This document shows, one piece after another, positions 1-16,828 of a stretch of 20,000 nt of DNA. Below the pieces are notes generated by a model. It was not told where the DNA came from and did not search any database. It was given only the letters and a program-made list of their open reading frames with translations. The position numbers and the translations under genes are program-made. Every line of letters begins with the position of its first letter. Position 1 is the first letter of the stretch. This DNA comes from an uncultured virus (IMG/VR IMGVR_UViG_3300009104_000011) (Duplodnaviria; Heunggongvirae; Uroviricota; Caudoviricetes). Where the stretch lies: IMG/VR virus record IMGVR_UViG_3300009104_000011; one strand, written 5' to 3'.

Positions 1-647
1 TGACAACACCGCAACCACAACCTCCTACTAACTTAGATGGTGTGTTTTTTGAAGACGCCAATCAAAGTACAGAGGTAATAACGCCACCAGAGCCCGTACA
101 ACAAACTCAACCGCAACCACAAGAAATTACACAATTAACCGAGGACGAGTACAAGAAGATACTCTTTGGAGCATTTGTGGAAGCAATGGGACCAGTCGCT
201 AACGACCAACAGGTCCTTGCCGCACTACAAGAGCAAATTGATGTGGCGGTTTCTACAACATTAATTGAGATACCCGAAGCACTAGCACAAGTTCAACTAC
301 AGCGAATGAATGAGAAACTATTACTCATAAGAAATCTCAGAGATATCGGTATGGGTATGATGGACCTACGAGAGAGAACAACACTGGGAGAAGCACCGTC
401 AGACATGATTGTTGCAGCCGGAGTGTCAGAATTGAGGAGCAATCCAGAGTTTTACAAAATATTCGCAGACAATACTTACGATGAGTTAATGGCCAAGATT
501 GAGCCCTTCAAGACTACTGGCGCAGTAGAACAAGACTACCTATATCTACAGAAGCCGGAGGTTCAAGAAGTGTGTAGGTATTTGTTACAAGCAGTCAAAA
601 ATGATGCCCTACAGAATGGTATACCAGAAATGCCAACTCTAGCATAG
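1..647 (+). CDS. Hypothetical acidic alpha-helical protein with Pro/Gln-rich N-terminus; probably 5'-truncated by the window edge
   Basis: The frame of track ORF 42..647 is open back to base 3 (TTPQPQPPTNLDGVFFED). Bases 1-2 'tg' would complete an ATG one base outside the window. Contains RSNP at 435-446. Confidence 0.75.
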   Translation, partial: TTPQPQPPTNLDGVFFEDANQSTEVITPPEPVQQTQPQPQEITQLTEDEYKKILFGAFVEAMGPVANDQQVLAALQEQIDVAVSTTLIEIPEALAQVQLQRMNEKLLLIRNLRDIGMGMMDLRERTTLGEAPSDMIVAAGVSELRSNPEFYKIFADNTYDELMAKIEPFKTTGAVEQDYLYLQKPEVQEVCRYLLQAVKNDALQNGIPEMPTLA

Positions 648-661
648 GGGTGATTTAGTTG

Positions 662-1390
662 ATGTTTGAAGACGACGGACCTGTGACTAGATATAAGAAT
701 GATAGAATAGTTATTCCTATATGGGGATTCTTACTAATATTCTTCGGCCCAGCCGTAGTTACTGTTACCTATCTATATCACTATTCGACAATGGAATACA
801 CAGCATCTGCGATAATAGCATTGGCTGTAATGAATGGTTCGATAAACACAGTAATTGCGTGGCTAACTATTCGTCTTGACGGACATTCTAATGACGCACT
901 AGAACACCTTGATACGATTATGGTCGCAATGGAAGAACTAGACGAAACAATGATCGAAGCAAACGAGATGGTTGAGAGTTTCACAACGGATTTGGACAGT
1001 GCTAAAGCACTATTCGATAAGGTTGGCGTGGACTTAGGAGCATTAGATTTGGAGCCAGTTGCTGAGGTTGTCGAGAAGTTGAAAGACAACAAGGATGAAC
1101 TAAACGAGATCCTAAATCACATGAAAGAGGTCGATGTAAAGCACTATATTGACCAAGCAAAGAGGATTGATTGGCAGTCATTGTTAGATTCTGTTGAGGA
1201 AATAATGGGCTTTATTCAATCTAAATCTGGCCCGATTCAAGTACCAAAACCATCTGTCTCCAATGTTGTTTTACCGAATGTCGGTGGTTCGGTGTTTGAT
1301 GAAGAAGAGGATGGCGATTTCTTTTCTGACAGCCTACAACTATCTCCACCAACAAGGGGACTGAGCCTTACGCCACCAAAGCGGCCCTAA
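662..1390 (+). CDS. Membrane protein: two N-terminal TM helices, long acidic coiled coil, Pro-rich/acidic tail
   Basis: Hydrophobic segments IVIPIWGFLLIFFGPAVVTVTYLY and ASAIIALAVMNGSINTVIAWLTI. SD GGGGTGA at 647-653. Start is either ATG 662 or TTG 659. Confidence 0.75.
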   Translation: MFEDDGPVTRYKNDRIVIPIWGFLLIFFGPAVVTVTYLYHYSTMEYTASAIIALAVMNGSINTVIAWLTIRLDGHSNDALEHLDTIMVAMEELDETMIEANEMVESFTTDLDSAKALFDKVGVDLGALDLEPVAEVVEKLKDNKDELNEILNHMKEVDVKHYIDQAKRIDWQSLLDSVEEIMGFIQSKSGPIQVPKPSVSNVVLPNVGGSVFDEEEDGDFFSDSLQLSPPTRGLSLTPPKRP

Positions 1391-1824
1391 CTAAGTTCTT
1401 CTAGTTCCTTGAAACGAATTTTGGTGAAAGGTGCCTCGCCTTGAGCGCACTGAATCTTTTCTGCTGACACTTTCACAATTTGATTATCGTCCAAAAAGGC
1501 CACTCCGGAACAACCATCCTTGACTAATTTGATCAAGTTATCAAGATCTGGCTTTTTCACGCGCCAAATACGCGGGCGAGGGGTTCGCTTTCGCTCTTGG
1601 CTCTTTGGTAACTTTATACCAAACTGAATTTGCAGCATAATTGGACCACTCAGGATATCAATATCTTGTTCCTTCATTGCTTGAGAAACGAAAAACCTAA
1701 CAGACTGCTTTCCGTCTTTGCTTTTTTTGGGATCGTATGCACGAGGAAACCCACCATGAGAACTAAATCTTGGTCTCCCTTGAGCAACCGGCTCGCCGGG
1801 TATGACGACAGTAATCTCCTTCAT
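1387..1824 (-). CDS. rusA: RusA-family endodeoxyribonuclease (Holliday junction resolvase)
   Basis: Family motifs GEPVAQGRPR, KPDLDNLIKLVKDG and LDDNQIV; 145 aa. Confidence 0.92.
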   Translation of the reverse strand: MKEITVVIPGEPVAQGRPRFSSHGGFPRAYDPKKSKDGKQSVRFFVSQAMKEQDIDILSGPIMLQIQFGIKLPKSQERKRTPRPRIWRVKKPDLDNLIKLVKDGCSGVAFLDDNQIVKVSAEKIQCAQGEAPFTKIRFKELEELS

Positions 1825-1861
1825 CGAATTGAAACCACAATTACTGAGTAATGAAGATTGT

Positions 1862-1897
1862 GAAAGGCGTTAAAGTCAAGCACCCTGTCCGAAGACC
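1862..1897 (+). promoter_or_regulatory. Candidate archaeal BRE/TATA promoter for a leaderless transcript; lies in the divergent region shared with rusA
   Basis: GAAAGG followed by TTAAAG at 1870-1875, 28 nt upstream of ATG 1898; no SD before this ATG. Confidence 0.45.
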
Positions 1898-2596
1898 ATG
1901 GAAGAGGGCCAAGTCCTTCACATAAAGTACAAAGACCACGTTCCTATTCAGAAGCGATTTGAGAGCATCGTTCGCATAATCGTAGACATGATTGAGGATG
2001 GGATGCGCGATCAAGTAGTTAGGCAAAAAGCAATATCTATTGTAAATGCTGCCGGAGTTCGTGGTCACGACGAAGTTGGTGAAATACGCGCTATCACAAA
2101 GTGGGTACAGACACACATGGTTTATCGCAAAGAACCTGTAGGTGTAGAATATTTTCACACAGCCCGAAGGCTACTACGTGATATTGATAATGGCTCTTCC
2201 GCAGGGGATTGTGACGACTTTGTTATTCTCGGTGGATCGCTACTTGGTTCACTAGGTTATCCAGTAGGCGCACTAATCGTAGACTCGTCAGGTGATGGAA
2301 CTTTCAATCACGTTATGTTAGTGACAAAAACTTTCACTGCAACAAGAGAGTTTGGAGATAATTGGATACCTGTCGAGTTAATCTATCCAGAATTTGAATT
2401 AGGACAAAGTGTACCGGTTTCAAAGGTCTATCCGCTAATGGCCGATGCAAAATCAATACGCTCACCTGTAACACATAAGACAATAAGTGGTTTAGGTAAC
2501 GTACAAGTTACTAATTCCTTGAAGCCCGGTGTTAGAAGTAATCGTTTTAGAGAAATGTTATCGAAACACCCTTTGGCAAAATTATTTAGAAGGTGA
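1898..2596 (+). CDS. Transglutaminase-like (papain-fold) cysteine enzyme; candidate virion maturation protease or cross-linker
   Basis: AITKWVQTHMVYRKEP, then GDCDD (Cys105, 2210-2212), NHV (His138, 2309-2311) and WIPVE (Glu160, 2375-2377, where Asp is usual). Confidence 0.85.
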   Translation: MEEGQVLHIKYKDHVPIQKRFESIVRIIVDMIEDGMRDQVVRQKAISIVNAAGVRGHDEVGEIRAITKWVQTHMVYRKEPVGVEYFHTARRLLRDIDNGSSAGDCDDFVILGGSLLGSLGYPVGALIVDSSGDGTFNHVMLVTKTFTATREFGDNWIPVELIYPEFELGQSVPVSKVYPLMADAKSIRSPVTHKTISGLGNVQVTNSLKPGVRSNRFREMLSKHPLAKLFRR

Positions 2597-2600
2597 TTAG

Positions 2601-2759
2601 ATGCAGATTCCTAAGAATGACTCAGCCTATCGACTATTACAGGCACCAACTTATTCTCGCGTGGGTTCCGTCTCTGTTTTAGATAGTGGATTTTGGGGAA
2701 CTCTCATAAGTATAGCCGCCGTCGGACTCTTGACGGTGACACTCTTTAACCGACTTTGA
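2601..2759 (+). CDS. Small 52-aa membrane protein (not in ORF track)
   Basis: MQIPKNDSAYRLLQAPTYSRVGSVSVLDSGFWGTLISIAAVGLLTVTLFNRL*. SD AGGTGA at 2591-2596; fills the gap between neighbours exactly; C-terminal TM helix. Confidence 0.8.
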   Translation: MQIPKNDSAYRLLQAPTYSRVGSVSVLDSGFWGTLISIAAVGLLTVTLFNRL

Positions 2760-2768
2760 ATGAGATGA

Positions 2769-3212
2769 TTGACAATGCCAGCAATGAATATATCGCTACA
2801 ACGCAGAATTGGAAGGCTACCTAAAAGCCCAGATTACTTGGACAATGTACCGCCTTCAATTTTTGAATACAACCACCGTGGATTCGGAATGAGAACGCCT
2901 ACACCAACTTACAAAGGATTCTTCGGAATCGGTAAGCACAAGCAGGGTCATGCGGGTAACGAAAATGGGGATGGTATGTTGAGTGCAATTTATGGAAACG
3001 ACGGAACTCGTTCTCTTCCAGCACCGGGAATCTACGGCATTGGTAGCGCTCCCGGCGAAGAAACAGTTATGCCTGCAGCGACAGAGTACAAGCCGACTCA
3101 TTGGAATACCCCTGGCCTCTTTGGAATTCAGGACACAATAACTCAGAACTGGAAGCCGCTTGCGGCAGTATTGGTAATAGGATACGTCGCTAAGCAGAAG
3201 AAGTGGATCTGA
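2769..3212 (+). CDS. Gly/Pro-rich protein with C-terminal membrane anchor and repeated G-hydrophobic-G motifs
   Basis: RGFG, GFFGIG, AIYG, PGIYGIG and PGLFGI repeats; C-terminus LAAVLVIGYVAKQKKWI. ATG 2775 is an alternative start. Confidence 0.75.
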   Translation: MTMPAMNISLQRRIGRLPKSPDYLDNVPPSIFEYNHRGFGMRTPTPTYKGFFGIGKHKQGHAGNENGDGMLSAIYGNDGTRSLPAPGIYGIGSAPGEETVMPAATEYKPTHWNTPGLFGIQDTITQNWKPLAAVLVIGYVAKQKKWI

Positions 3213-3224
3213 GTAGTTGATGGT

Positions 3225-4115
3225 ATGCCAAGAAAGCGATCTTTTCTAGGAGACAATAGGTACCTTGTAGGTGGCCTAGCCCTCGGAGGCTTGTATCTTC
3301 TCACAAAAGGCGGTAGCGCTCTAGGTCCTGCTGCCGAGGCAATCAGCAGAAGGGCTAATCCAGATGATGAATCAGCAGCCGCGGGTGTGACTCCCGGACT
3401 ATTTTATTACATCAGCGAAGCAACAGAGTGGAATGATTACCAAATCATGAAGCCAGCAATTTCGCCTGACACACCAGAAATCATAATTCCTTACACCCAA
3501 AATGATGCAGTAATTCATCTAATGGCTCGCGGTATGCCGGAAAACGTATCTCAGTCAGAAGCACGAAAGATAATTGCAAGAGGATATCCTAGTATAGTAC
3601 ATAGACTAGAGGGAATATACAATAGAAGTAATATGACTGTAGGAGATAGAAAGGAAGTATATGCTCACTTAACACCTCTATACAATGTAATGGGAACACC
3701 AAATGGACAGAGAGTCCCTGCTCCCGGAGCAACTGTTGCAACAACCACACCTACAGCAGAGTCTGTTCAAGGTATGGCAGTTAGAAGAAACGTTGCTGGA
3801 AACTACAGTCCCGGATCAAATCTAATGGGACACCAGACAACAAATCGTGCCGGAAATAGAAGACTGCGTGCAATTAGCGGAATGAAGTCATGGACTAAAG
3901 ATCACACACGTCAGGTCTACGACCAAAGAAGAAATATTTCTGCAACAAGAGAAATGACACTCAGAAATATGAAAGCGGGTATGGATATTGATCTTTACAA
4001 ACCCGTAGAAACACTTGAGATTTTCAGTGAAGCACCACAGCGCAACACGCATGAAGTAGACAATGTCGGTAACGCACTCGTTAAAACGAGGGACTCCATG
4101 CGAAGGATGCTGTGA
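3225..4115 (+). CDS. Hypothetical protein with N-terminal membrane anchor and Arg-rich C-terminal half
   Basis: YLVGGLALGGLYLLT hydrophobic segment; RRANP at 3348-3362; tightly packed in the operon. Confidence 0.75.
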   Translation: MPRKRSFLGDNRYLVGGLALGGLYLLTKGGSALGPAAEAISRRANPDDESAAAGVTPGLFYYISEATEWNDYQIMKPAISPDTPEIIIPYTQNDAVIHLMARGMPENVSQSEARKIIARGYPSIVHRLEGIYNRSNMTVGDRKEVYAHLTPLYNVMGTPNGQRVPAPGATVATTTPTAESVQGMAVRRNVAGNYSPGSNLMGHQTTNRAGNRRLRAISGMKSWTKDHTRQVYDQRRNISATREMTLRNMKAGMDIDLYKPVETLEIFSEAPQRNTHEVDNVGNALVKTRDSMRRML

Positions 4116-4119
4116 TTGA

Positions 4120-7100
4120 ATGACTTTGCAAAGAAGACGCCGCCGCAATGCGGATATCTTTGACACTGGGCCTTTTGGTGCATACAATAACTTTGGATTC
4201 ATTGATGATGGCGGTGACAGCGGCGGTGGCGGCGGCAGCGACGGTGGCGGTAGTTCAAACTCAGAACAAATCAGATACCATAGCACCTACTGGTATTATG
4301 TTTTACCAGTTTACTCCACTGGAAGTCGACCATCCATTCTTCATTATGCGTGGACCGTATATGATGATGTCAATGATGTAGGGACTACAGACCCGCTTGC
4401 TAGTGGAACAGGAGTCACCGATGAGATGGCAGATGCGGCAGCAAAGTCAGCAATTGATACATTAAAAATCGAAGCAGAAGCAGCCGCAGCCGCTGCGGAA
4501 GGCTATATTATTTACTTAACATGGGCGGACGTCTATTACCATCACATGATTATGGGACAACTTACAACAGAGCAAGCAAAAGATATCCTAGCAAATCAAT
4601 TTAATATTAGCGGTGAGGGGCTTGCGCGATACCCTGGACAGTGGGGCTCAGGTATGGCGTATTACGACGAATCAACTTTCTTAGAGCAGTTTGAGGTCCA
4701 TGATAGGCAAGAAGAAGGAGAAATAGAAGAGTATGCTCCACAGATACCAGTTATTGATTACGAAGCAGGATCGTACCTATTACCAAATGTAGGTAATGCT
4801 ACGATGGCGGATCAGCCCATACCAACAAACACCGCATACAAGTATTGGGACGGCAATCTAAAGTCACACAATTGGGCAGACCACGGTATGTCTACGCCCG
4901 AAATGGGCGATGTAAAAGACGGTGGAAGGTATCCTAAACCAATAGTGGATTCGTACGGTGGATATGCTGTTTCATTGAGTCATTATATTGCATCTTATGA
5001 CCCCAATGGGGCGTTTTTAGGATTCAGGGTGCTGACCGCGTCAGAACTTGAGGGAGGAATACCGGCAGGAATCCCCATTGCGACAGTTATGCAAATGTTC
5101 ACCAAGTGCGCCAAGTCTAGAAATGGGCACGATTTCAAAAACAATGGTAGAAACTTCATGTTGGATACCGAAAAGGAACCAGTATGGAGAAAGGCATTAG
5201 ATATGCCTATGCAGCCAAAAAGTTTCTTCCTTTGCGAAACAGCATTTGCAAGAGGACGACCGATACCAAAACCAACAGGCGGTCGTGACAATCAGGTGAT
5301 CATTGAAGGTACACACGGGTTCAATAATGATGATTTGACCATAGCCTATGATACAGGGTATAATGACGTAAAATCTGTATTCGGTAATCTTGGTAGAGAA
5401 GACACTCTTAACAGAGAAGTATACGAAAAGGCAGGCGATGAAGCCACAGCAGAAGCAGGATTTAGTGGATTGGGCTTCAAGATGACCTGGTCACCTCCGT
5501 CCAAGGCTTCTGGATGGCGCAGTAAAGTATACTATGCTGCAAAGGTTGAGTGGCTCGGAGAAAATGGACAGTTTGGTGCTTATTCGACGCACCCAGAAAG
5601 TATACCCGACTGTGACTCAGAACAAGGGAAAACCATGGTTATCTACAGATTTCCAAGACAATTAGACCCTGTAGTAGATAAAAATCTACTAGACTTTTAC
5701 GCAGCAAATGGAATGCCAAACTATGATATAACTCATACTGGAAAGTGTTATCCATTCCCCGAAGTTCATACAATGTCCTCTGGAGATGTTTCCTCATACA
5801 CAGATGCTCGTGACACCAAATATGGGTTAATTGGAAGACTAATGCCAACTAATTCAGATGCAATAGATGCAGAAAAATATGAAGCAGAATACAATGGAGA
5901 AGTATATGCTGGCCGTAGAGTAATTAGTTTCTTACCAATGATATCACCGAGTCTACCACCATCAAATAGACACCGACCGTACATCTTGAATGGAGAAGAT
6001 CTTTGGCCACTTTATTCGGCTTCTATGCATTACAAGAAAACTGATTGGTTTTGTTTTGACACGGGTTTAATTACTGGGGCTGCAATATCTATTACAGACC
6101 CATATAAGAAAGCGTATCTCGGTAGTGGCAGAGTAACCAACGCTTACTTCCCAAAGGCTAATTTAGACGTTGGAAGTACTGCTTTCGCAGTCGGCCAATG
6201 TATGCTTGCTTACGACATGGAAAGCCCGTCTGTTGATGCTAGGTTAGGAGAAAACTTTCCTACTGTCAATTTGCCTCACTCGTCTGAGAGAATAATAATT
6301 ACTACAGAACCTGGGAAAATGGATAGTGCTGGAATGCCTTTCAGATCCAAAGAACTAGACCCGATCGGAAGAGTAGACGATGGTTCTATGGCTGGAAGTT
6401 CCAAGTCAGATTATCTATCACCTATTCAAGTAATCACTACACAGGATTTAGTCAATATGGAGGCTACGCCACCAATGCCTGAGCCGGTAGGAATGGCTGC
6501 AATTAGAGATGCATGGAAAAATACAATGGGAACAGAACTTACAGCAGCGTCATTTGCGGCACTTCCAAATATAGGCGCATTCGACAATCCAACAAAATAC
6601 GGTGTTAGAGACCCCAACAATCCATTAAATTACATCATAAATACAAACTATGGTACGTTTAGTTTTCCCTTCACAATAGCCATATTCCAAGTACCTTTGC
6701 ACCATAGAGGACCAGTTCTAAAATATAGCGACGAAGTTGATACGAATGGTAATCTTAAACCACTTGAGTCAAGTTCGGAAAAACCAGGATATATCGGAAC
6801 AAAGGATGTAAGGCTGGTCTATCAAAGTCCTTTCGGAGAAGTAAACAGTTCCATAATCAATCTCGATAGAAAAATACAGAGACAACTAGACACAGTAGAA
6901 TTAGATGAACATGGTAATCCGATAGAGGGCGAAGTTAGCGACTTGTTTGAAGAACAAACTCAAGAAGGTGGCATCGATGAAGGACAGTATACAGAAGACG
7001 AGCAAGAAATATTCACCGAAAGGCAGTTCAAGAACTGGATGTATGATAAACTCATGGAAGACTATGGCGATGTTAAATGGACAAGCACACCATTTAAGCA

Positions 7101-7689
7101 ACACTTCCATCTTTGGAATAAAGACTACGTTACAGGTAAGATGCTGTTAGAAAAATTCGGAACTGACCCCGATTTCAAACTACCCGGAGTAGATTACTCA
7201 GTATACGAAGCAAGAGCCTCGGAGTTAGGAATTCAAATGGTTTCACAAGTTACAGACGACGAGGCTCAAGATGACCAAGCGGCAAACATGTTAGGTCTTG
7301 GAGCGTTCACAAATTCACAAGGATTTACCGTAACAGACGTTACTGCAAAGTGGGGAACAATGGAAGCCGCTAATGCAAGATACACCGGAGATGTCGGGAT
7401 GTCCATGGTGCCTTATGAGGCAAATGTCAAAAACGAGCAACTCGGATATATGGCAATGAGCAACCTCAGCGGGCTTGGATATCCGGGTGAAGGCGTCATA
7501 GATGACGCTAAAGGATTCGCAGCAGATGTCACAATGGAAGCCGCAAAATGGTCTGGACTTGGAGTGGGACTTGGGCTTGGTGGAGCAGTTATGATTCTGG
7601 CTGGTGGTGTAGCAGTTGGTATAGCAGCAAAAGAAAGTGGAAAAGCCGTGTGGACAATACTTAACAAGAAGAGTCCAAACTCGATTTAA
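4120..7689 (+). CDS. Large (1189 aa) acidic protein with Gly-rich C-terminal TM anchor; possible spike/adhesin-like virion protein
   Basis: Long ORF with N-terminal RRRRR and a poly-Gly linker, an aromatic/Gly/Pro-rich core, and C-terminal GLGVGLGLGGAVMILAGGVAVGIAA. Function is inferred only. Confidence 0.8.
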   Translation: MTLQRRRRRNADIFDTGPFGAYNNFGFIDDGGDSGGGGGSDGGGSSNSEQIRYHSTYWYYVLPVYSTGSRPSILHYAWTVYDDVNDVGTTDPLASGTGVTDEMADAAAKSAIDTLKIEAEAAAAAAEGYIIYLTWADVYYHHMIMGQLTTEQAKDILANQFNISGEGLARYPGQWGSGMAYYDESTFLEQFEVHDRQEEGEIEEYAPQIPVIDYEAGSYLLPNVGNATMADQPIPTNTAYKYWDGNLKSHNWADHGMSTPEMGDVKDGGRYPKPIVDSYGGYAVSLSHYIASYDPNGAFLGFRVLTASELEGGIPAGIPIATVMQMFTKCAKSRNGHDFKNNGRNFMLDTEKEPVWRKALDMPMQPKSFFLCETAFARGRPIPKPTGGRDNQVIIEGTHGFNNDDLTIAYDTGYNDVKSVFGNLGREDTLNREVYEKAGDEATAEAGFSGLGFKMTWSPPSKASGWRSKVYYAAKVEWLGENGQFGAYSTHPESIPDCDSEQGKTMVIYRFPRQLDPVVDKNLLDFYAANGMPNYDITHTGKCYPFPEVHTMSSGDVSSYTDARDTKYGLIGRLMPTNSDAIDAEKYEAEYNGEVYAGRRVISFLPMISPSLPPSNRHRPYILNGEDLWPLYSASMHYKKTDWFCFDTGLITGAAISITDPYKKAYLGSGRVTNAYFPKANLDVGSTAFAVGQCMLAYDMESPSVDARLGENFPTVNLPHSSERIIITTEPGKMDSAGMPFRSKELDPIGRVDDGSMAGSSKSDYLSPIQVITTQDLVNMEATPPMPEPVGMAAIRDAWKNTMGTELTAASFAALPNIGAFDNPTKYGVRDPNNPLNYIINTNYGTFSFPFTIAIFQVPLHHRGPVLKYSDEVDTNGNLKPLESSSEKPGYIGTKDVRLVYQSPFGEVNSSIINLDRKIQRQLDTVELDEHGNPIEGEVSDLFEEQTQEGGIDEGQYTEDEQEIFTERQFKNWMYDKLMEDYGDVKWTSTPFKQHFHLWNKDYVTGKMLLEKFGTDPDFKLPGVDYSVYEARASELGIQMVSQVTDDEAQDDQAANMLGLGAFTNSQGFTVTDVTAKWGTMEAANARYTGDVGMSMVPYEANVKNEQLGYMAMSNLSGLGYPGEGVIDDAKGFAADVTMEAAKWSGLGVGLGLGGAVMILAGGVAVGIAAKESGKAVWTILNKKSPNSI
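4209..4251 (+). repeat. GGC/GGT low-complexity tract encoding a Gly/Ser linker (GGDSGGGGGSDGGG)
   Basis: Directly visible in the sequence. Confidence 0.7.
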
Positions 7690-7698
7690 GCAACACCC

Positions 7699-7728
7699 TC
7701 TTAACAACCCACCTAGTGCGCATAACTG
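7699..7728 (+). promoter_or_regulatory. Candidate archaeal TATA-type promoter, leaderless
   Basis: TTAAC at 7701-7705, 28 nt upstream of ATG 7729; no SD. 7701-7726 matches 14578-14603 at 17 of 26 positions. Confidence 0.5.
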
Positions 7729-9000
7729 ATGGCAGTCAGTCCTGACTTTGCAAATCGTTTGGTTTTTGAGTTCAAAGAGAAATCAGCCGAAATTATTGAT
7801 AGGTATAATCTGAGTCATCTTAGAGGAACAGAAAAGATGGATCCAGCCACAAAATTGGCTGCAGAGTTCATTAATCTTGCAAATCAAAGCACAACCAATC
7901 CAAGTGTGACAGAATCAATGCTCGCATCTGAGCAGAGAATGTATCTTAAGACACTTGAGCAAAAAGTCTTAGGAATTACCAAGAACCAAGCCAAGAGTCT
8001 AGATGGACTGCACGCACAGGCATTTGGGACTACTGTAGTTAGTGACGCAAATTGGGACAGGACTGTTTCATCCGTTGCAAAAGAAGTAGACCGAATTGCT
8101 GTCAAGAATAGCAGTTTGATTAACGCATTGACTAAGGAAGAGCAAAAGTACATGGATAACATGTTTGCAACTGTTGTAGAAACCGTCCGAGTAAAGCACG
8201 AAAGAGATCCTTCTGCGCAGAGTTCTATGGATGCAGAAAAGGCAGCATCTCAAGATCTTAGGACTGTGGAAAAGCAGTTAGAAAAGATGGCAACTGACTC
8301 GATTAAGAGAAGACAACACGAGATATACAGTGATTTTGATGAGCAGTTGAATAGGTATTTGCAATCGTTTAACGAGATGCGAAAAGCAATGAAGCCCGTG
8401 GAAGTTAAGAAAGCCAACAATCAAGTTGGTTTGATAAAGAAAATGATGCGAGAACTAAAGACAAATAAGCGACTAATGAGAGATCGAAATCTGCTACAGT
8501 CGCATATTGCAGCAATTCAAAATCAATTCAAAGTGCTAAACGAGATGGAAGGAGACATGTCAGAGACTGTATCCGCAGTTGCTGGTATATTCGGTTCAAC
8601 TGCCAGGCCAAGTAACAGAAGACACTTTTCTTTTGATGGATTTGGTGCAATGATAACCGCTGCGGAGATTGAAAGCAATCACCCAGAAACAAAGAATCCA
8701 GCGCACATTCGTTCTATGCAGTATTTCATGAATCAAGGTCTCACTTTTGACCAAGCACATGAAGCCTCAAAAGCCTATGGTTATGAGATGAATGATGGTG
8801 TGAGAAGCATGGACCTTGATTATAGAGTTAATTATTTGGGTCAAGCCACAGACTATACAGAAGACTCTCATACACTTAGAGAGTCTTCTTTTGGTAGAAA
8901 ACTGTTAAACGTGGGTGCGGGGACAGTAGGTGGAGGGATACTGTTGCTCGGAGGGGGTTTACTCGTTTTAATAGGTATATCAAGGGTGGGAAGTAAATGA
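7729..9000 (+). CDS. Coiled-coil protein with C-terminal Gly-rich TM anchor
   Basis: Helical K/E/Q-rich body; FDGFG motif; C-terminal VGAGTVGGGILLLGGGLLVLIGI; ATGA overlap with the next gene. Confidence 0.8.
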   Translation: MAVSPDFANRLVFEFKEKSAEIIDRYNLSHLRGTEKMDPATKLAAEFINLANQSTTNPSVTESMLASEQRMYLKTLEQKVLGITKNQAKSLDGLHAQAFGTTVVSDANWDRTVSSVAKEVDRIAVKNSSLINALTKEEQKYMDNMFATVVETVRVKHERDPSAQSSMDAEKAASQDLRTVEKQLEKMATDSIKRRQHEIYSDFDEQLNRYLQSFNEMRKAMKPVEVKKANNQVGLIKKMMRELKTNKRLMRDRNLLQSHIAAIQNQFKVLNEMEGDMSETVSAVAGIFGSTARPSNRRHFSFDGFGAMITAAEIESNHPETKNPAHIRSMQYFMNQGLTFDQAHEASKAYGYEMNDGVRSMDLDYRVNYLGQATDYTEDSHTLRESSFGRKLLNVGAGTVGGGILLLGGGLLVLIGISRVGSK

Positions 9001-11072
9001 ATTTCATCAGAACTAATGGAGAAGTCGTTCAAGTGAATGACAAGGACGTCAATACCCTTGAGAAGAACAAAGATTACACGCTCTACGGAGCAAGACACAA
9101 CCCAAGTGGTGAACAAATGGTATCAGTAGTTTACAATAACGACGCAGCGGCAGAGTATGCCGACAATGATGTGGGAGATTCGATAGCAGATCATCCCGAA
9201 GACCGAAGCATAAGAGGCAATCCAGGTAAGAAATTAACTTGGAGAAATCTGAGACTGCAATCAGCAATAGATGGTGAAGCAACTGTAAAGGGACGAGTAG
9301 GTACGGCAGTTGGTGCGCCTGAGAAACTACTACGATTTGCAGGGAGTGCAATCCTGTCTGGGGTAATAGCAAGCGATCAATCACTAAGAGACGACCCAAT
9401 GTTGGTTATTTCTACAGCAAAAGATTGGTACGCATACATCCAAAAAATGAATACCGTAGACATTGGTGCAGAATTTGCTGCCGGTGTTTCACACGCACAA
9501 CGTGCCTCTAACGCAATGTTCGCTCACGAGTGGGAGAACGATCCAGGCCACCACAATCTCTCAGGAAGACTTCTTCCGGGAGCAGATATTCAAGATGCAA
9601 TTGCAAAGGGACAAATTGCTTACGATGTATTAACTCGCGGCAGAGACATTCTCGCTCAACAGGGATACGGTGCAAACCAACAGGAAGTAATGCACAAGTT
9701 AGTTTTCGATATACTGCGCTCACTTCCAATCAGAACTTACAACTTTTACACACTCTTTAGACTCCATCCCGACGAAGGAAACGCAATCTACTCTGAGTTC
9801 CAGAGCCGATACATTCCTCTTGATACCGCTGAGGTAGAAATGGTTCTTGAGATGCAAAGAGCATTGGACTTGGAAGGAGACGCTTATGCTTTCCGAACAA
9901 CTGCTAATGAACAACAAGGAGTTCTTTCGGCAAGGCTCATGAGATCTGCTGTAGCAGATTATGCCGCAGGTGACACAGTATCAGTTAGAACAATCTTGAT
10001 GACACTGCAGGCACCACCTTACAATTACAGAGCAAGAGGCGTACAAATTGCTGCTGCTGGTGGTGACGCTAGTGCAGCCACCGGTCATGAAACAATCTAC
10101 ATGGAGTTCAAACTTGCTAACAACGAAATGGTAGAAACGGCTAGTCAGAACGTACAAGGAATCAAGAAACTGTCCAAGGACAAGATAGGTGGTTGGGCAA
10201 TTGGAGTTCAAGAACACCACATGGATGATAAAAACCAACTCCAAATCGCTAAAGACTACAAGGATAAGTACAAAACAGTACCTATCGCTCACAGTCAATA
10301 TGATCCAACCCCTGCCTACTTGGCAGTTAGATTCAAATCTACTGGAAAGAAGAAGAAAGGCAAAGGTGGAGACTCTTGGACACTTGTAAACTACGAGGAA
10401 GACTACTTGAGAGTAGGCAACCAGTCCGAAGCAGGTCGTTCTGCAAGAAACATTAGACAAGGTCTAGGTAGCGGTGGCGGCAGGCAAAGTTACGATAGAA
10501 GGCAGCGTGGCGGCCACCGAAGTGACTCAGACTGGGGTAAAGGCTCGCGCGATAGAGGTCGCAGAAATCCCAAAAAGAAAGCAAAGTCAAAGGGTGCAGG
10601 TAGAGGAAATTATCTCTTCGTAGAAATACACGATAAACGCCAAATTGACATGAAGCGACGAGAACCTGCAAAGGGAAAGCAAAAGGGAGAAACTCGACAC
10701 GGAACTGGTAAATCCAAGAAGGGACAGGGTTATTGGAGCCGTGGAGTAAGCAAACATTTACCTGCTGGACAAATGCTACAGATGGGTACTTTGAAGAAAA
10801 CCGGCGAAGAAGCACCGTTCCGAATAAGATTCCCTAGGTCACATTTTGCGACAGTTGCTCATCAATCATTGAAGCCAGGGCAAAAGACGCTGATTCCAAA
10901 GAAGAATAAGGCCAATAAAGAATTCGTAGAGGCGTATCAAGACTTCGTGGACTACTATGGGATGCCTGTTATGACTTCTTCAAGAGACACACAACCCCGC
11001 TTTGTTGTCCCGAAGGAAGCAAGACTCTCTTCGCCGTACTACCAAGAAGTACGAAAACAAATCGGCCAGTGA
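8997..11072 (+). CDS. Hypothetical 691-aa protein with strongly basic K/R/G-rich C-terminal third; candidate DNA-condensing core protein
   Basis: TGKKKKGKGG and RDRGRRNPKKKAKSKG tracts; RHNP, RGNP and RRNP motifs. Confidence 0.8.
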   Translation: MNFIRTNGEVVQVNDKDVNTLEKNKDYTLYGARHNPSGEQMVSVVYNNDAAAEYADNDVGDSIADHPEDRSIRGNPGKKLTWRNLRLQSAIDGEATVKGRVGTAVGAPEKLLRFAGSAILSGVIASDQSLRDDPMLVISTAKDWYAYIQKMNTVDIGAEFAAGVSHAQRASNAMFAHEWENDPGHHNLSGRLLPGADIQDAIAKGQIAYDVLTRGRDILAQQGYGANQQEVMHKLVFDILRSLPIRTYNFYTLFRLHPDEGNAIYSEFQSRYIPLDTAEVEMVLEMQRALDLEGDAYAFRTTANEQQGVLSARLMRSAVADYAAGDTVSVRTILMTLQAPPYNYRARGVQIAAAGGDASAATGHETIYMEFKLANNEMVETASQNVQGIKKLSKDKIGGWAIGVQEHHMDDKNQLQIAKDYKDKYKTVPIAHSQYDPTPAYLAVRFKSTGKKKKGKGGDSWTLVNYEEDYLRVGNQSEAGRSARNIRQGLGSGGGRQSYDRRQRGGHRSDSDWGKGSRDRGRRNPKKKAKSKGAGRGNYLFVEIHDKRQIDMKRREPAKGKQKGETRHGTGKSKKGQGYWSRGVSKHLPAGQMLQMGTLKKTGEEAPFRIRFPRSHFATVAHQSLKPGQKTLIPKKNKANKEFVEAYQDFVDYYGMPVMTSSRDTQPRFVVPKEARLSSPYYQEVRKQIGQ

Positions 11073-13546
11073 TTAGGATGAGAGTAAAGGTACCCAGAGA
11101 TCTTGCGGGAGGTTCTCTCCTTAATGCACATAGGTGGGTAAAGTCCACTATTGCAAGACAAAATCCAGGTGGTTCAACGTCTGATTACAAGATACAGGAA
11201 ACTAATGGAACACCAATTAGTTTGAGTGATTTGACTAGCAGAAACTTTGACGAAGTCTTAGTGATATCCGGAACAAGAAGTAACCCACCTGAACGCGGCG
11301 CACTTGCAGACAGAGCCGCAGAGCGCGGATTTATTGACGCAGACACTTCTAACTACCCAGTGGCTTCACCAGATTGGAGATACCCCAGTTATAGTGACAA
11401 TAATAGGATAGGTAATAACATAGCAAAACTACTACCTAAGGATATAGATGCTTCTATGCTAAATAGACTAGCAGCACAGAACGGTATGTTCAGCGCATTG
11501 AATACAACCACGAAGTTACTTTACACCGATGAAGGACATTTCTCAGATTCCGCAACCGACCCACAAGTCGCAGCACTATTGCAAACGTATGCTAACGCAC
11601 AGCAGAAACTACAACATCCGATTCTTTCCAACCCAGCGAGGACGTTCTTTGGTCCTGATATGAATGATGGATACAGGGGAGTTCTCTCGCCTGATGAAGC
11701 AGTCAAGGTATGGGCAGCAGATAAGTTCAAACTCGATAGCACCAGATTAGGACCAGTCCAATCCACACAATTAATGGATCGGGCCAGAATAATTAGAATG
11801 TACGATTTAGATAATTCAGAGAACCTTAACAATTTCATAGATCATGTTCTGACTCCGTATCTAGTAACGTCCATTGCAAACGCAAACTTGCTAAAGGCCA
11901 TGAGACACGGAGACTATCATCAAACCACAAAGGAGGCCCTAGGTAGATTCAAGGGAGATATGGAAGATACCCCACAGTGGAAGAAATTACTCGCAATGCT
12001 ACCAATGCACGCAAAGGACTTCTACGATGGAAAAGACTACGCTCTTATTGCTCACCCTGTCTTCCAAAGACGAAGCCTAGCAATTCAAGCAATGGATAAG
12101 AGACTCATCAAGCGAATAATGAAGATAGTCAAAGACCATCCAGATAACGCAAACGAAGCACTATCTCCAGGTGAAATCCGTCCCGGTTATAGATCTGCAG
12201 GAGTCGTAGGACTGATAGAGAGTCTTATGGTTCCAGAGAGAAGGGAGATAAACAACCTATTGATTGCTCAACAGCAGATACTGACAACAACAGATCCATC
12301 GGCGCATTTAGAACTTCTAAGAGAACTATACTTGGGTGACAGTAGAGATGAATCTATTGCTAACTCAGTTCGCGACATGGTTATTGGTGACAAAGTAAGT
12401 TACCAAAGAGATGTTGCAGGTTTCCGACCCACGCCTCCACCATACTGGCCTAAACCGGTTGTTCTTGCGGTAATGGATGCATTGAAGGAAAACATCCACG
12501 CTTTCATCGAACAAACAGATAGATTTGGAGTAGCCTTTAGACAACTAGCCAGTATACCTCATATGCCAGTGAATAGAGATCAGAGGATTACTTTCACTCT
12601 TGGAAATGAACAAGCCTCGATGTCACTAGACAGTCTAATCAATCTAAGGAATATTCTGGCACCTCTTTCACCCTCTGTGCTGATGGCTAGCGGTGGTGCG
12701 CAGGGAGTAGATAATCCGACTACTGGAAGGCTGGGTGCCGCGGTTGTAGTTGAAGAGCCAGGTAGACGCGAAATGGAATTTAGGTCGATAGGTATGTCAC
12801 CAAGACAGTCGAGTCCCCTATTCGGAGGGGGCGTATCTGATGATGAGAGAATACTACATTGGAACGATGTGCGTTTCATCATAGCGGCGTTCACTAAGAA
12901 CAGAAATTATTTCCGTGACGGGCTTATGCAGAAAGACGCAGCGGAGATACGGACACTCTTTGAACACATGATTCACAAGTATAGTCGGACAGAGTTTAAC
13001 GAACTTGCAGATGAGACACTTAACCTGCTTTCGATATTTATGGAAGTAGAGGAAACTGCCAGACACAAGTACAATTACGCTATGACCGAAAATGACAGAG
13101 CATTTGTGCTGTATCTTCTGAATAGACTTTTTGACACGATTCAAGTTCAACCCGAATGGGGAGACGGAAGTGGAGACGGCGGTCCGGGCGGAAGGTCTGA
13201 TGATGAAATAGTGAATATTTTGATGCACATGCAAGGACCAGATCAAGCAGTAAGTAATGATCAGATGAACCGTAGACTTCAATTTAATAGAAGGGTTACT
13301 GCGATATCTAACAGGCTTATTCGGGATTATGAAGCAGGCGGTATGGTTCCTCGCCCAACAGAAGTCAATAACATATTTGATGAATTACAACGTGATGTGG
13401 AACTAAGTGCATGGGGACGTAATTTAGTAGCGCACGAAAGAGCGAGAGTATTGAGAGAGATACAATATGATTATGCCCCTAATCAAGCAGTTGAAAGACA
13501 CCGCATGTATGCTGATATTGACGCTATTGGGCGTGATGATAGATGA
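11069..13546 (+). CDS. Hypothetical ~825-aa mainly helical protein
   Basis: Long ORF; GTG 11069 overlaps the upstream stop, and ATG 11078 is a likely alternative start. Contains RQNP, RSNP and LSNP motifs. Confidence 0.8.
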   Translation: MIRMRVKVPRDLAGGSLLNAHRWVKSTIARQNPGGSTSDYKIQETNGTPISLSDLTSRNFDEVLVISGTRSNPPERGALADRAAERGFIDADTSNYPVASPDWRYPSYSDNNRIGNNIAKLLPKDIDASMLNRLAAQNGMFSALNTTTKLLYTDEGHFSDSATDPQVAALLQTYANAQQKLQHPILSNPARTFFGPDMNDGYRGVLSPDEAVKVWAADKFKLDSTRLGPVQSTQLMDRARIIRMYDLDNSENLNNFIDHVLTPYLVTSIANANLLKAMRHGDYHQTTKEALGRFKGDMEDTPQWKKLLAMLPMHAKDFYDGKDYALIAHPVFQRRSLAIQAMDKRLIKRIMKIVKDHPDNANEALSPGEIRPGYRSAGVVGLIESLMVPERREINNLLIAQQQILTTTDPSAHLELLRELYLGDSRDESIANSVRDMVIGDKVSYQRDVAGFRPTPPPYWPKPVVLAVMDALKENIHAFIEQTDRFGVAFRQLASIPHMPVNRDQRITFTLGNEQASMSLDSLINLRNILAPLSPSVLMASGGAQGVDNPTTGRLGAAVVVEEPGRREMEFRSIGMSPRQSSPLFGGGVSDDERILHWNDVRFIIAAFTKNRNYFRDGLMQKDAAEIRTLFEHMIHKYSRTEFNELADETLNLLSIFMEVEETARHKYNYAMTENDRAFVLYLLNRLFDTIQVQPEWGDGSGDGGPGGRSDDEIVNILMHMQGPDQAVSNDQMNRRLQFNRRVTAISNRLIRDYEAGGMVPRPTEVNNIFDELQRDVELSAWGRNLVAHERARVLREIQYDYAPNQAVERHRMYADIDAIGRDDR

Positions 13547-14565
13547 CCATTAGCGACCAAGTAAATGAGATGGTGCAGGAACTCAGAGCGTGGAACGAAT
13601 CAGACAATCCTAAATTTCTTGGTGACCAACTTTATGACCCCCTTGGTTGGGAGGAATTGAGAGAAAGACAACTCGATATCAAAGTGGTAAATAAGGGAAT
13701 TTCAGACATTGCACCACACCTTGATGCTCAGGCATCATTTGTTCTAACTTCGCTAGACCAAGGCCTTGACAGTGTTAGAGTCGATATTCGCAGATTGTAC
13801 GCTGGTTTCCAAGAATTCGCAAAAGGAGAGGACCGTCCAATCAAGAATCTAAACACAATGACTGACTCTCAAAGAAAGACAAAAATGGCACGGTTAAGAG
13901 AAGATTATTTGTTTTTCTTTGCAGATGTTGCACAGAATTCAACGTCCTTATACACCAGTAAAGGATTGATACAGAACGCTATTGAGACATTACGAATGCA
14001 GAGTAAACTTGCTAACTCTGTAAATGCTCTAGGTGGCAAAATGGAGAACTCTGTAACCTATACTCAACTGGCTGATCGACTACAAGCACTCTATGATAAT
14101 GTGTCCAATCTCGGTATGGCTTTGCAAAAGTTACAAATGACAATTAAGAAAGTTAAAGATCCGCCAAGACAAAGGTATCCAAAAATGGATACGAAGCAGG
14201 GCGATAATCAGTTTGTGGATAAATTATACTATGATGTTTTGACTGAGTGGTTAAGAGTTCTCGCTCACTGTCACAAAGTCGAGAATTCAGTGCGTACAAT
14301 GAGTGCGCAGTTTGTAAAAGTAAAAGGACTGAAAGGAATGTCTAAAGATCGACATGGAATGGATACTCTGCCAGAAATTTTGGATAAATACAAGGCAATC
14401 AATAATGAGGCGAAAGCAACGTTCCCTAACTATCGACCAATGTTATTTGAGTCAAAAGTAAAGTTTGCCGAAGCAATGGACCATGCGACCAAAAGAAAAA
14501 GTAAGCGTCGGGCTCTTGTGAAAGCAAATCAGGAACTATTGTCGCGATTAGAAGAGATCTTCTAA
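13543..14565 (+). CDS. Hypothetical 340-aa helical/coiled-coil protein
   Basis: ATGA overlap with the upstream gene; heptad-like pattern; basic C-terminus. Confidence 0.8.
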   Translation: MTISDQVNEMVQELRAWNESDNPKFLGDQLYDPLGWEELRERQLDIKVVNKGISDIAPHLDAQASFVLTSLDQGLDSVRVDIRRLYAGFQEFAKGEDRPIKNLNTMTDSQRKTKMARLREDYLFFFADVAQNSTSLYTSKGLIQNAIETLRMQSKLANSVNALGGKMENSVTYTQLADRLQALYDNVSNLGMALQKLQMTIKKVKDPPRQRYPKMDTKQGDNQFVDKLYYDVLTEWLRVLAHCHKVENSVRTMSAQFVKVKGLKGMSKDRHGMDTLPEILDKYKAINNEAKATFPNYRPMLFESKVKFAEAMDHATKRKSKRRALVKANQELLSRLEEIF

Positions 14566-14574
14566 ACCAGTAGC

Positions 14575-14603
14575 CGTATAAACACCTACCCCTTGCGAAT
14601 AGC
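14575..14603 (+). promoter_or_regulatory. Candidate archaeal TATA box, leaderless transcript
   Basis: TATAAAC at 14577-14583, 27 nt upstream of GTG 14604. Confidence 0.55.
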
Positions 14604-16289
14604 GTGAGCAGCGCAGCATTTTGTGGTGATTGTGGAACTAGAGCCAATCCTAGTAGAGTCACGTGTTTTCAATGTGGTAGCAAATTGCCACATACTCATG
14701 TAAGAGAAAACCCGGCTTTATATGCAAAACTATCTAGAGAATTACCTCCTGCAGCAGTTTTCGATCTCGATATGACAATCTTTGATAACTCGCAGCGATT
14801 TAAGGATGCGCGGCGGGCAGGTTTGGTCGATAAAGAAGGAAAGGCTGTATCAAAAGGCATGATGAGTAAAGGCCAAGCATGGAGAAAGCGAAACAATTTC
14901 CTTTACAGTAAGAAGAATCTACGAAAGGACACAGTAATCCCTGGAGCAAAAGAACTAGTAAATGAACTAGCAAATGAAGGATATACTATAGTGTATCTAA
15001 CTGCTAGACCTAAAGAACACTATGAGGCTACTATAGAGCAACTAGAATATTTTGGATTCCCTCTCTTTAGAGACAACAAGGGAGAAACTCTTCTGATAAC
15101 GAAAGAGCAAAGGAATACCCAAGTTGGTGCATACAAAGGTAATGCGCTAAGAGAACTATCTGGAAATTACAAAGTGGAAATGTTCTTCGATGATGACCAT
15201 AGAGCACTAGAAGAAGCACTCAAATTGAAAATCCCCGGTGTGTATAGCACAGTAGACCAAAGAACAAACCCCGGTGCGGGTGACGTCCACATTGCAGAAG
15301 AAGACATTGAAAAAGCATATAGAATGATGCCAGATCCTGATGATGAAGATGATCGAACTGTTGGGGAGACGATGAATCCATCAGATACTGACGAATATCG
15401 TGAGGCAGCAGGTGCAATAGTGATGAACGAAGACAAAGTTTTGCTACTACGTAGGTCTGTAAAGGAAACCTCCCGACACGGTATGTGGGAACTTCCCGGA
15501 GGAAAACTTGAGGAAGGAGAGACTCCCGAAGATGCTGCTATTACTGAAACAAAGGAAGAAAGTGGTCTAGATGTTGTACTCGATAAAAAAGTCGGTGAAC
15601 ACGTTGATCACAATATGAACAAAGTCTATCACGCTTATATTGCAGAACCCACAAGTGTAGATCAAGAAGTTAAATTATCAGAAGAACATGACGAAAGCCA
15701 ATGGATGACTATTGAGGAAGCACTTGCTTTAGAGGAAGGAAAACTAAGCCATCATGCAAAGTTCTTCTTTGCAAAAATGAAGGTTCTTTCCAACCCAGCA
15801 AAGCGTGGTAAAGATTCCAAGGGACCTTACTACCGTTGGGGTGGTGGAAAGAAATACCATTACAAGGCTGGCAATAAGAAGTCAAGAGAAGCGGCAAGAA
15901 AGAAGGCTTACGGCCAAGCAAGAGCCGCATTTGCTGGTGGCTACAAAAAGAATCCAGCAAGTCCTAAGAAGGTAAAGAAAGCAGAGAAACTTTACAAGCA
16001 CATGAATGGCCAAGAACCAGAGAAGGTAAAAGTTGAGAATATAGATATTGGCAATGTCTGGTACAAGGTCGGAGAAGGTGGGTGTTGGCAGATTGGTTAT
16101 ATGTCTGGCAAAGAAACTGGTAAAGAAGAGCAGAAATATGTTCATACATTCAATGAGGAAACAAAAGATGGCAATTTCCCAGAACTCTATGCAACTATGC
16201 CCGACAAAGGTAAGCCTATGTTGATCATCAAAGGTGGTACTTGGAAGATTAAAACTGACGACAAGGGCGTTGCTTGGATATACGATTAG
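14604..16289 (+). CDS. Multidomain protein: Zn ribbon + HAD-superfamily phosphatase + Nudix hydrolase + basic module + C-terminal domain
   Basis: CGDC...CFQC zinc ribbon. HAD motifs DLDMT (14763), YLTAR, YK and FFDDD (15183). Nudix box GGKLEEGETPEDAAITETKEESGL (15498-15569). Confidence 0.88.
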   Translation: MSSAAFCGDCGTRANPSRVTCFQCGSKLPHTHVRENPALYAKLSRELPPAAVFDLDMTIFDNSQRFKDARRAGLVDKEGKAVSKGMMSKGQAWRKRNNFLYSKKNLRKDTVIPGAKELVNELANEGYTIVYLTARPKEHYEATIEQLEYFGFPLFRDNKGETLLITKEQRNTQVGAYKGNALRELSGNYKVEMFFDDDHRALEEALKLKIPGVYSTVDQRTNPGAGDVHIAEEDIEKAYRMMPDPDDEDDRTVGETMNPSDTDEYREAAGAIVMNEDKVLLLRRSVKETSRHGMWELPGGKLEEGETPEDAAITETKEESGLDVVLDKKVGEHVDHNMNKVYHAYIAEPTSVDQEVKLSEEHDESQWMTIEEALALEEGKLSHHAKFFFAKMKVLSNPAKRGKDSKGPYYRWGGGKKYHYKAGNKKSREAARKKAYGQARAAFAGGYKKNPASPKKVKKAEKLYKHMNGQEPEKVKVENIDIGNVWYKVGEGGCWQIGYMSGKETGKEEQKYVHTFNEETKDGNFPELYATMPDKGKPMLIIKGGTWKIKTDDKGVAWIYD

Positions 16290-16297
16290 GTGATTAA

Positions 16298-16597
16298 ATG
16301 CCACATAAATTTGGGATATCTGAACTCACTTGGACCTACATTGGTGTTGCATCTGCGACGCTACTTCTTATGACAACGTCAAAGACCGCAGCAAATACTA
16401 TAGGCAAAGAAGGAGTCTTTGGTTACGGGAAGAGTAAAAAACTTGCCTCACTTGGGAAGAGCAAGGAGAAAACCTGGGGTGATTTACAAAATGCTTCATT
16501 AGTGCTGCTCGCTCTGACTATGTTAGAGAGTAGCCACGACTCGATTCAAAGACTCACGAACGCTCGACAGGCAAGTAAATACAAGGATATATTTTAG
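16298..16597 (+). CDS. Small membrane protein (two hydrophobic segments)
   Basis: SD AGGTGA at 16288-16293; segments WTYIGVASATLLLM and ASLVLLALTML. Confidence 0.75.
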   Translation: MPHKFGISELTWTYIGVASATLLLMTTSKTAANTIGKEGVFGYGKSKKLASLGKSKEKTWGDLQNASLVLLALTMLESSHDSIQRLTNARQASKYKDIF

Positions 16598-16606
16598 GTG
16601 ATAATT

Positions 16607-16828
16607 ATGGCAGAAATTTGGAATCCATTTGACGCAGATAACCCAGTTTACAAAGATCTTGCAAAGCAAACTGCAATCAATAAAAACTACTGGAGAATAG
16701 CCGGAAGCATTGCATTGTTGATGTTTGTTGCAGATCAGGCAGGTAAGCGAGGTTGGGCAAAGAAAGCATCGAGAGCCACGGGGATAGGAGCATACAAAAA
16801 TAACCCCTATGGGATAATCCGCAAGTGA
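16607..16828 (+). CDS. Small single-TM basic protein (73 aa)
   Basis: SD AGGTGA at 16596-16601 favours ATG 16607 over the track's GTG 16598. Has TM IAGSIALLMFVA and three NP dipeptides. Confidence 0.75.
   Translation: MAEIWNPFDADNPVYKDLAKQTAINKNYWRIAGSIALLMFVADQAGKRGWAKKASRATGIGAYKNNPYGIIRK

Follow-up and report, generated by a model that had tools for sequence, protein, structure and literature searches.

The closest published concept to the system described here is the polyvalent protein, in which 2-15 unrelated, mostly enzymatic domains are joined in one polypeptide of varying architecture, and some of these proteins are processed before or after packaging, a step attributed to metallopeptidase domains within them (Iyer et al. 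2017, PMC5512222). Here, we analyse a short recurrent peptide motif, basic-x-Asn-Pro, in 20,000 nucleotides of DNA from an uncultured virus (IMG/VR record IMGVR_UViG_3300009104_000011; the window, below, is the whole of this stretch), which belongs to an uncultured, virus-like marine element about 140 kb long. Leaving aside two unconserved tetrapeptides, the motif is confined to five proteins of the window, and we propose, with a probability of roughly 0.45, that it marks seams at which modular "polyvalent" cargo proteins are processed. Two hallmarks of the published concept recur: unrelated domains are found in one chain in a 561-residue protein of the window, and the architecture varies, with NUDIX, YbjQ-like and Cys-rich cassettes in 16 relatives of that protein; unlike here, no short conserved motif at the junctions is described in the available part of the published account (PMC5512222).

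Other systems share one or another of these traits. The junctions come into view first in comparison with viral polyproteins: African swine fever virus pp220 and pp62 are cut at Gly-Gly/X by pS273R, and the sites of the adenovirus protease are analogous. As there, we deal with a double-stranded DNA virus and with a short consensus at the borders of what would be the products, and a candidate cysteine protease is encoded nearby, but the pair is Asn-Pro instead of Gly-Gly, the fold of the candidate is that of transglutaminases instead of adenain/Ulp1, the products would be enzyme modules instead of a core shell, and cleavage is predicted here from sequence. Asparagine peptide lyases, such as reovirus mu1 (N42/P43) and FlhB/YscU (N/PTH), have the same Asn-Pro pair, which is scissile there and in one case belongs to a virion protein. 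These have a single site in one specific fold, whereas the window has 13 sites in unrelated contexts. The demarcation motifs of polymorphic toxins (VENN in CdiA, PxxxxDPxGL in Rhs) are likewise short conserved peptides at the point where variable cassettes are exchanged, but they precede one C-terminal toxin per protein and serve bacterial competition, whereas here there are many seams, enzymes of nucleotide metabolism and a virus-like element. The consensus of 2A (StopGo) ribosome skipping is D-[VI]-E-x-N-P-G-P; none of the 27 Asn-Pro contexts in the window products reads NPGP, and the three sites with NPG continue with K, G or A.

Frequency and conservation of the motif

The set analysed comprised 14 plus-strand open reading frames (ORFs) totalling 6,389 residues. 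All the tetrapeptides listed in the preliminary description of the window occur in their products, each at the coordinate given there (Table 1), and its hand count was exact: there are 27 Asn-Pro dipeptides, of which ten have Arg two residues before the Asn (position -2), the others having T (three), L, S or K (two each) or one of eight further residues (once each). With an Arg frequency of 0.057, only 1.5 R-x-N-P would be expected (binomial P of at least 10 of 27, 1.2e-6), and none of 3,000 within-protein shuffles, the test that had been suggested, reached ten (mean 0.92, maximum 6). The motif had been chosen after inspection of the sequence. Its p-value is the lowest among the 3,696 patterns of the type a-x-bc that were observed, and it therefore survives a correction for all 8,000 possible patterns at about 0.01. 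The reverse pattern, PNxR, occurs twice in the window products. Codons vary between sites, as had been reported (Asn, AAT or AAC; Pro, CCA, CCC, CCT or CCG; Arg, AGA, AGG or CGC). The longer form G-[AT]-R-x-N-P is indeed present in three proteins, at 9093, 11276 and 14640, and the contexts in which the motif recurs have no detectable homology, with an hhalign probability of about 10% beyond the motif. We also considered that the N-terminal pieces carrying this longer form might be homologous mini-domains, and rejected the idea, the motif alone being aligned at that probability. The description of the motif as virion-wide is unsupported, because none of the window products could be assigned to a capsid, portal or terminase family or identified as another virion protein. 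The large proteins encoded at 4120-7689, 13543-14565 and 16839-20000 have no conserved basic-x-Asn-Pro.

Table 1. Motif sites, the proteins that carry them and other features, with the fraction of aligned relatives in which Asn-Pro is kept and the residues found at -2.
Feature	Position	Strand	Description	Asn-Pro in relatives
RSNP	435..446	+	truncated ORF 3-647	
RusA Holliday-junction resolvase	1387-1824	-	Pfam family; only minus-strand gene of the window	
Transglutaminase-fold protein	1898..2596	+	candidate seam protease; predicted Cys active site	
RANP	3351..3362	+	296-residue protein, 3225-4115	
423-residue protein	7729..9000	+	R-x-N-P in most relatives	
TKNP	8689-8700	+	423-residue protein	18/19; R in 15
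691-residue protein	8997..11072	+	no Pfam or PHROG family	
RHNP	9093-9104	+	691-residue protein	21/21; R 16, K 5
RGNP	9213-9224	+	691-residue protein	19/21
RRNP	10560-10571	+	691-residue protein	11/25
825-residue protein	11069..13546	+		
RQNP	11156-11167	+	825-residue protein	29/30
RSNP	11276-11287	+	825-residue protein	30/30
LSNP	11624-11635	+	825-residue protein	31/32; R 15, K 12, L 4
561-residue protein	14604..16289	+	modular	
RANP	14640-14651	+	561-residue protein	23/26
RENP	14703-14714	+	561-residue protein	26/26
RTNP	15261-15272	+	561-residue protein	22/22
LSNP	15786-15797	+	561-residue protein	18/19
KKNP	15945-15956	+	561-residue protein	18/19
76-residue protein	16598..16828	+		
KNNP	16796-16807	+	76-residue protein, seven residues before its C-terminus; absent from the preliminary description	16/16; R 5, K 5, Y 6
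Anchor-like hydrophobic stretch	2769-3212, 3225-4115, 4120-7689, 7729-9000, 16298-16597, 16598-16828		products with such a stretch, judged by eye	
Metzincin-like ORF	G002 L052:12123-12608	-	162 residues, HEYGHALGLQH; Matrixin match sub-threshold (E 1.3e-4)	

Relatives of the 825-residue protein, 64 of them at E<=0.001, are all unnamed proteins from marine metagenomes, on contigs of up to 180 kb. When it was aligned with 28 of these, picked for their spread (29 sequences, down to 34% identity), N32, P33, N72, P73, N188 and P189 were invariant and the residue at -2 alternated between Arg and Lys; Asn was never exchanged for another helix-capping residue. For the per-site alignments, each window protein was compared with its relatives, leaving out one locus (L034, a duplicate of the contig G001 described below) and the rows that fell short of the site. 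They show that the Asn-Pro pair is kept at eight of the ten R-x-N-P sites, and not at RSNP 435 or RANP 3351. Asn-Pro pairs without a basic residue or Leu at -2 are mostly lost (3/14, 1/35, 3/12, 2/19, 1/14, 1/13 and 0/13 relatives), the better kept being PNNP (9/14), HGNP (6/14) and TTNP (7/15) and the two pairs near the start of the 76-residue protein (16/16 each). In that protein, residues 7-16 read I-W-N-P-F-D-x-D-N-P, the first pair forming an N-P-F tripeptide, which is a ligand of eukaryotic EH domains, and the C-terminal tail YGIIRK is conserved. The flanks HPE[RT]xNPAHIRSMQY are conserved around the site of the 423-residue protein. Over the conserved sites, the consensus is a small or hydrophobic residue, K or R (or L), a polar residue, N and P, often followed by G, A, S or H.

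The same pattern is found beyond the window. A first scan of IMG/VR with the 825-residue protein as sole query gave no match, and an alignment-based scan found one contig; the pattern scans yielded one IMG/VR locus and 35 metagenome loci syntenic with the window. In these 36 loci, counted over non-overlapping plus-strand ORFs of at least 100 residues, Lys or Arg is frequent at -2 of Asn-Pro and the enrichment was replicated. The contig G001 (61.5 kb, IMG/VR, estimated to be 44% complete) provides an internal comparison: in its syntenic 23-kb block, 22 of 46 Asn-Pro pairs have K or R at -2 (p 1.6e-8), against 2 of 27 (p 0.74) in its other 38 kb (Fisher p 3e-4). A more distant relative, G002 (110 kb, estimated to be 79% complete, 52.5% G+C), matches ten window proteins at 19-61% identity. 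Its syntenic block is rich in Asn-Pro (66 pairs in 12,343 residues, against 70 in 22,727 elsewhere), and includes giant proteins of 2,955 residues with 22 pairs and of 829 residues with 13. Over the 66 pairs, L (14) is commoner at -2 than K (9) or R (7), and therefore the core is Asn-Pro, the basic residue being a trait of the window's clade. The proposal that the constraint acts on the protein stands. Arg alternates with Lys, and in G002 Leu is the commonest residue at -2. On these alignments, the invariant core of the motif is Asn-Pro and not Arg.

Among side observations on these proteins, similar Lys/Gly-rich runs (T-G-K-K-K-K-G-K-G-G) lie in the products of 8997-11072 (residues ~455-600) and 16839-20000 (~425-500), embedded in otherwise unrelated sequence, and relatives of the 691-residue protein have tandem copies of KKNP in their Lys/Gly-rich basic region.

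Module borders, cassettes and the nature of the seam

In the 561-residue protein, Pfam recognises a DZR zinc ribbon (residues 3-30), a HAD phosphatase (44-202) and a NUDIX domain (265-381), and there are at least two further modules of no known family. Its sites at residues 36, 222, 397 and 450 fall on either side of the HAD domain, of the NUDIX domain and of a module of 50 residues. The alignment with 16 relatives has a constant head (zinc ribbon and HAD), a constant tail of 110 residues and a variable middle in which cassettes were gained, lost or moved, every one of them edged by an Asn-Pro pair. The NUDIX domain follows the HAD domain in the window and a different module in one relative (L013); a YbjQ-like module in four relatives and a Cys-rich module in another (L023) are also flanked by Asn-Pro. 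The latter module (residues 460-616) shares 81% identity with residues 882-1033 of a different protein in G001, with 1,728 residues, and the match terminates at the pairs NP615 and NP1032. The G001 protein is likewise built of successive modules, among them DUF5754 and a guanylate kinase, which K-x-N-P separates; a JAB-like H-T-H-P...S..D seen by eye at its start was dropped, there being no match to Pfam JAB at E<=0.1. Breakpoints were also counted over all plus-strand ORFs of at least 150 residues. Internal BLAST breakpoints, taken from -3 to +5 residues around [KR]xNP and in 5-residue bins, numbered 41 for match starts and 60 for match ends, against means of 14 and 27 and maxima of 25 and 39 in 200 random placements of the motif. 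A short consensus, [KRL]-x-N-P, is thus found at Pfam domain borders and at cassette edges, in the manner of a polyprotein, and the placement of several sites at such borders fits the shared processing signal that had been suggested.

The invariance of Asn-Pro, the exchange of Arg for Lys, the position at the edges of modules and cassettes and the confinement to one gene block together point to a functional seam. In the mechanism that we propose, the seam would consist of a hydrophobic or small residue, Lys or Arg (sometimes Leu), any residue, Asn and Pro, as found in the five proteins; unrelated modules (zinc ribbon, HAD phosphatase, NUDIX and several without a family) would be joined in one polypeptide, Asn-Pro would mark the limits of every module and also of certain short pieces at the N- or C-terminus, and proteolysis at the seams would free the modules, either in the course of maturation or following delivery. 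The occurrence of a cut, its position and its agent are our inference. Placement in structural models gives mild support. In AlphaFold2 (AF2) models, the eight sites examined are all predicted to lie outside helices and strands, including the three of the 825-residue protein, which are in coil, and six are in segments with a predicted local distance difference test (pLDDT) below 50. Such low values say little, because a clearly conserved C-terminal module is also below 50. A Foldseek search of the PDB with the 825-residue model had no match at E<=0.001 (best E 0.11, template modelling score 0.07).

A number of observations weigh against a processing seam. First, two sites are not conserved as such. 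At RANP 3351, Asn-Pro is found in 0/8 relatives, which have RQVSP, R--AS and similar sequences. For RSNP 435, 104 longer relatives (~520 residues) were fetched and 24 aligned with the window product: Arg is present in 25/25 rows, and Asn in 13/25, the remaining 12 having Arg or Lys in its place, within a conserved block ELRKxPEFYKIF, so that this tetrapeptide, as read from the alignment, is not a seam. Second, RANP 14640 falls within the zinc ribbon. Third, five sites (residues 323, 35, 32, 15 and 36 of their own proteins) are in indel-free sequence with both flanks conserved, and indels are no denser within 20 columns of the 13 sites (mean 0.28) than in the background of the alignments (0.42); not all sites are therefore flexible linkers. 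Fourth, when natural ends mapping inside a longer relative were collected, none of one N-terminal and 23 C-terminal ends fell on Asn-Pro, as a gene split at a seam would have it. Fifth, confidence in the AF2 models is low (mean pLDDT 55 and 62). Sixth, Pro directly after the scissile Asn, at P1', is disfavoured by most endopeptidases. Seventh, the window's transglutaminase-fold protein, taken alone, is below the Pfam threshold (E 0.058; it scores 14.1 bits, where the cut-off is 23), and transglutaminase folds also serve as cell-wall isopeptidases.

The last point concerns the agent of a cut. That the seam is cut by a viral protease acting in trans is possible but doubtful, and the transglutaminase-fold protein, the shared maturation enzyme named in the preliminary description, would be an unlikely choice for that role, judging from its sequence. 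It belongs to a large family (1,702 relatives at E<=0.001). In an alignment of the window protein with 49 of the 150 relatives listed (50 sequences), D104, C105 and D106 never vary, and at least 90% of the sequences have H138; 46/50 sequences match Pfam Transglut_core at E<=0.01 and one matches Peptidase_C71. The third residue of a Cys-His-Asp catalytic triad, identified by eye, would lie in the consensus W-x-P-L-D, which reads W-I-P-V-E in the window. With the family profile, a match to a putative cysteine protease, PDB 3isr, was obtained (E 2e-4). The gene of the transglutaminase-fold protein lies 5 kb upstream, and the product is by far the most conserved of the block: in seven loci it is 84-93% identical, against 36-65% for the 825-residue protein and 34-65% for the other proteins. 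It is a real candidate, and co-location and very high conservation are its only ties to the motif. A predicted complex with residues 1-110 of the 825-residue protein scored 0.00, which we count neither way. A protease from outside the window is the alternative, exemplified by the candidate metzincin-like ORF of G002, which adjoins the 2,955-residue Asn-Pro-rich protein and a packaging-type ATPase. Its matches to Matrixin, Reprolysin and related Pfam families are all sub-threshold, and tblastn finds no copy in the window, in G001 or in the other loci examined, which are parts of genomes, and no test made here tied it to the motif.

The rival that survives best is a seam that is conserved and remains uncut, in which basic-x-Asn-Pro would be a docking motif for a common partner, such as a capsid-interior or packaging receptor or the chaperonin that the virus encodes, or a structural punctuation mark that keeps adjacent modules from disturbing each other's folding, the proteins acting either way as full-length multi-enzyme chains; this we hold possible, with some scepticism. 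In its favour are several points already made, namely that no module was found split off at a seam as a gene of its own, that five sites lie within sequence conserved on either side and not in variable linkers, and that Pro at P1' is awkward for a protease. In addition, relatives encode a group II chaperonin, and some published polyvalent proteins, according to the available part of the account, undergo packaging or transfer without being processed (PMC5512222). Were the motif just a linker or a helix cap, however, Ser, Thr or Asp should be allowed before Pro, whereas Asn is invariant in the 29 sequences of the 825-residue family, and a motif seven residues from a C-terminus (16796) or 30-40 residues from N-termini has the typical pattern of pro-peptide removal. 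We know of no reader domain for a basic-x-Asn-Pro motif, which also counts against an uncut seam.

A seam that cuts itself is quite unlikely. Here, the side chain of Asn would attack its own carbonyl to form a succinimide and the Asn-Pro bond would break without a protease, a scenario that had been proposed by analogy with FlhB/YscU. Such chemistry would account for the invariance of Asn-Pro alone, with residues -2, -1 and +1 varying among sites and lineages, which fits a chemical need better than an extended recognition site, and Pro after Asn blocks the competing deamidation. Known sites of this kind, however, need a folded domain that strains the bond, whereas the flanks here are unrelated; T-H follows Asn-Pro at 0/13 sites, so that the NPTH context does not hold; no asparagine peptide lyase family, FlhB-type or other, had a Pfam match in the proteins searched; and a basic residue or Leu at -2 has no known role in Asn cyclisation.

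It is very improbable that the conserved element is DNA, with the sites acting as micro-homology for recombination between cassettes and the peptide as a by-product. Cassettes do move at seams, and two LSNP sites in different genes (11622-11637 and 15784-15799) share 16 identical bases (TTCTTTCCAACCCAGC), an identity that may be chance or the trace of a cassette exchange. The codons of Arg, Asn and Pro nevertheless differ by site, the exchange of Arg for Lys keeps the chemistry and not the bases, and sites in conserved sequence that does not swap hold the motif equally well. Chance, or an artefact of composition in proteins rich in Arg and Asn, is close to negligible: the post hoc choice of the motif, the two unconserved sites among ten and one site that may reflect the zinc-ribbon consensus speak for it, and the shuffles, the top rank among patterns, the replication in 36 loci, the negative remainder of G001 and the strong conservation per site speak against it.

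The element and its relatives

The window (43% G+C) is densely filled by plus-strand ORFs, several of them with stop and start codons that overlap. In Pfam and PHROG, at E<=0.01, clear families were assigned to just two products, the RusA resolvase and the 561-residue protein; the remaining products have no match there. RusA is 76-88% identical across seven loci of the window's clade and 50% in G002, and its position is the same in all these loci. A phage collection had no match to the whole window (megablast) or to the 825-residue protein (tblastn), and no family of capsid, portal or terminase was recognised among the products of G001 or G002; an ESM Atlas look-up for a G001 product considered as a possible capsid protein found no match of use. 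The element is not recognisable as a tailed phage or plasmid. Magroviruses, which are head-tailed and have a thermosome (chaperonin) gene, share the chaperonin with the element's relatives, but they were rejected as its identity since the available part of their description has recognisable capsid, portal and terminase genes, and none was found here (PMC5434244). Six products of the window have a hydrophobic Gly/Leu/Ala-rich stretch, terminal or central, that resembles a membrane anchor, which hints at a membrane-associated assembly.

Genes for a group II chaperonin and for a small HerA/FtsK-like ATPase are present in both G001 and G002; G002 further has a primase-like protein, an AAA ATPase, RNase H, RusA and a transglutaminase-fold protein. 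In G002, a plus-strand ORF (L050:13377-18209) encodes a 1,611-residue homologue of the largest subunit of RNA polymerase, with all five Rpb1 domains, which among solved structures is closest to archaeal Rpo1N (E 1e-82), followed by eukaryotic Rpb1 (~1e-67) and bacterial beta-prime (~1e-32). An archaeal-type RNA polymerase encoded by a virus-like lineage of ~140 kb would be of note in its own right.

In open-access papers and preprints, supplements not included, we found no published description of the motif. A bolder reading, rather less likely than not, is that Asn-Pro would be the punctuation of a plug-and-play cargo system, in which cassettes bring their own seam and move between carriers, and a viral cysteine or zinc protease, or self-cleavage, frees an enzyme tool-kit, in an undescribed lineage of ~140-kb marine virus-like elements with archaeal-type machinery. 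If the seam is cut, Asn-Pro with a basic residue or Leu at -2 would be a new processing code, and a new kind of polyprotein processing code for double-stranded DNA viruses of microbes; the peptide is open to test by protein chemistry and could be a new protease site or self-cleaving tag. If it is uncut, it is still a short linear motif under strong selection. In either case, the motif lets annotators divide giant orphan proteins into modules, and the finding would explain how a few giant genes pack and exchange many small enzymes in an abundant, unannotated marine lineage.

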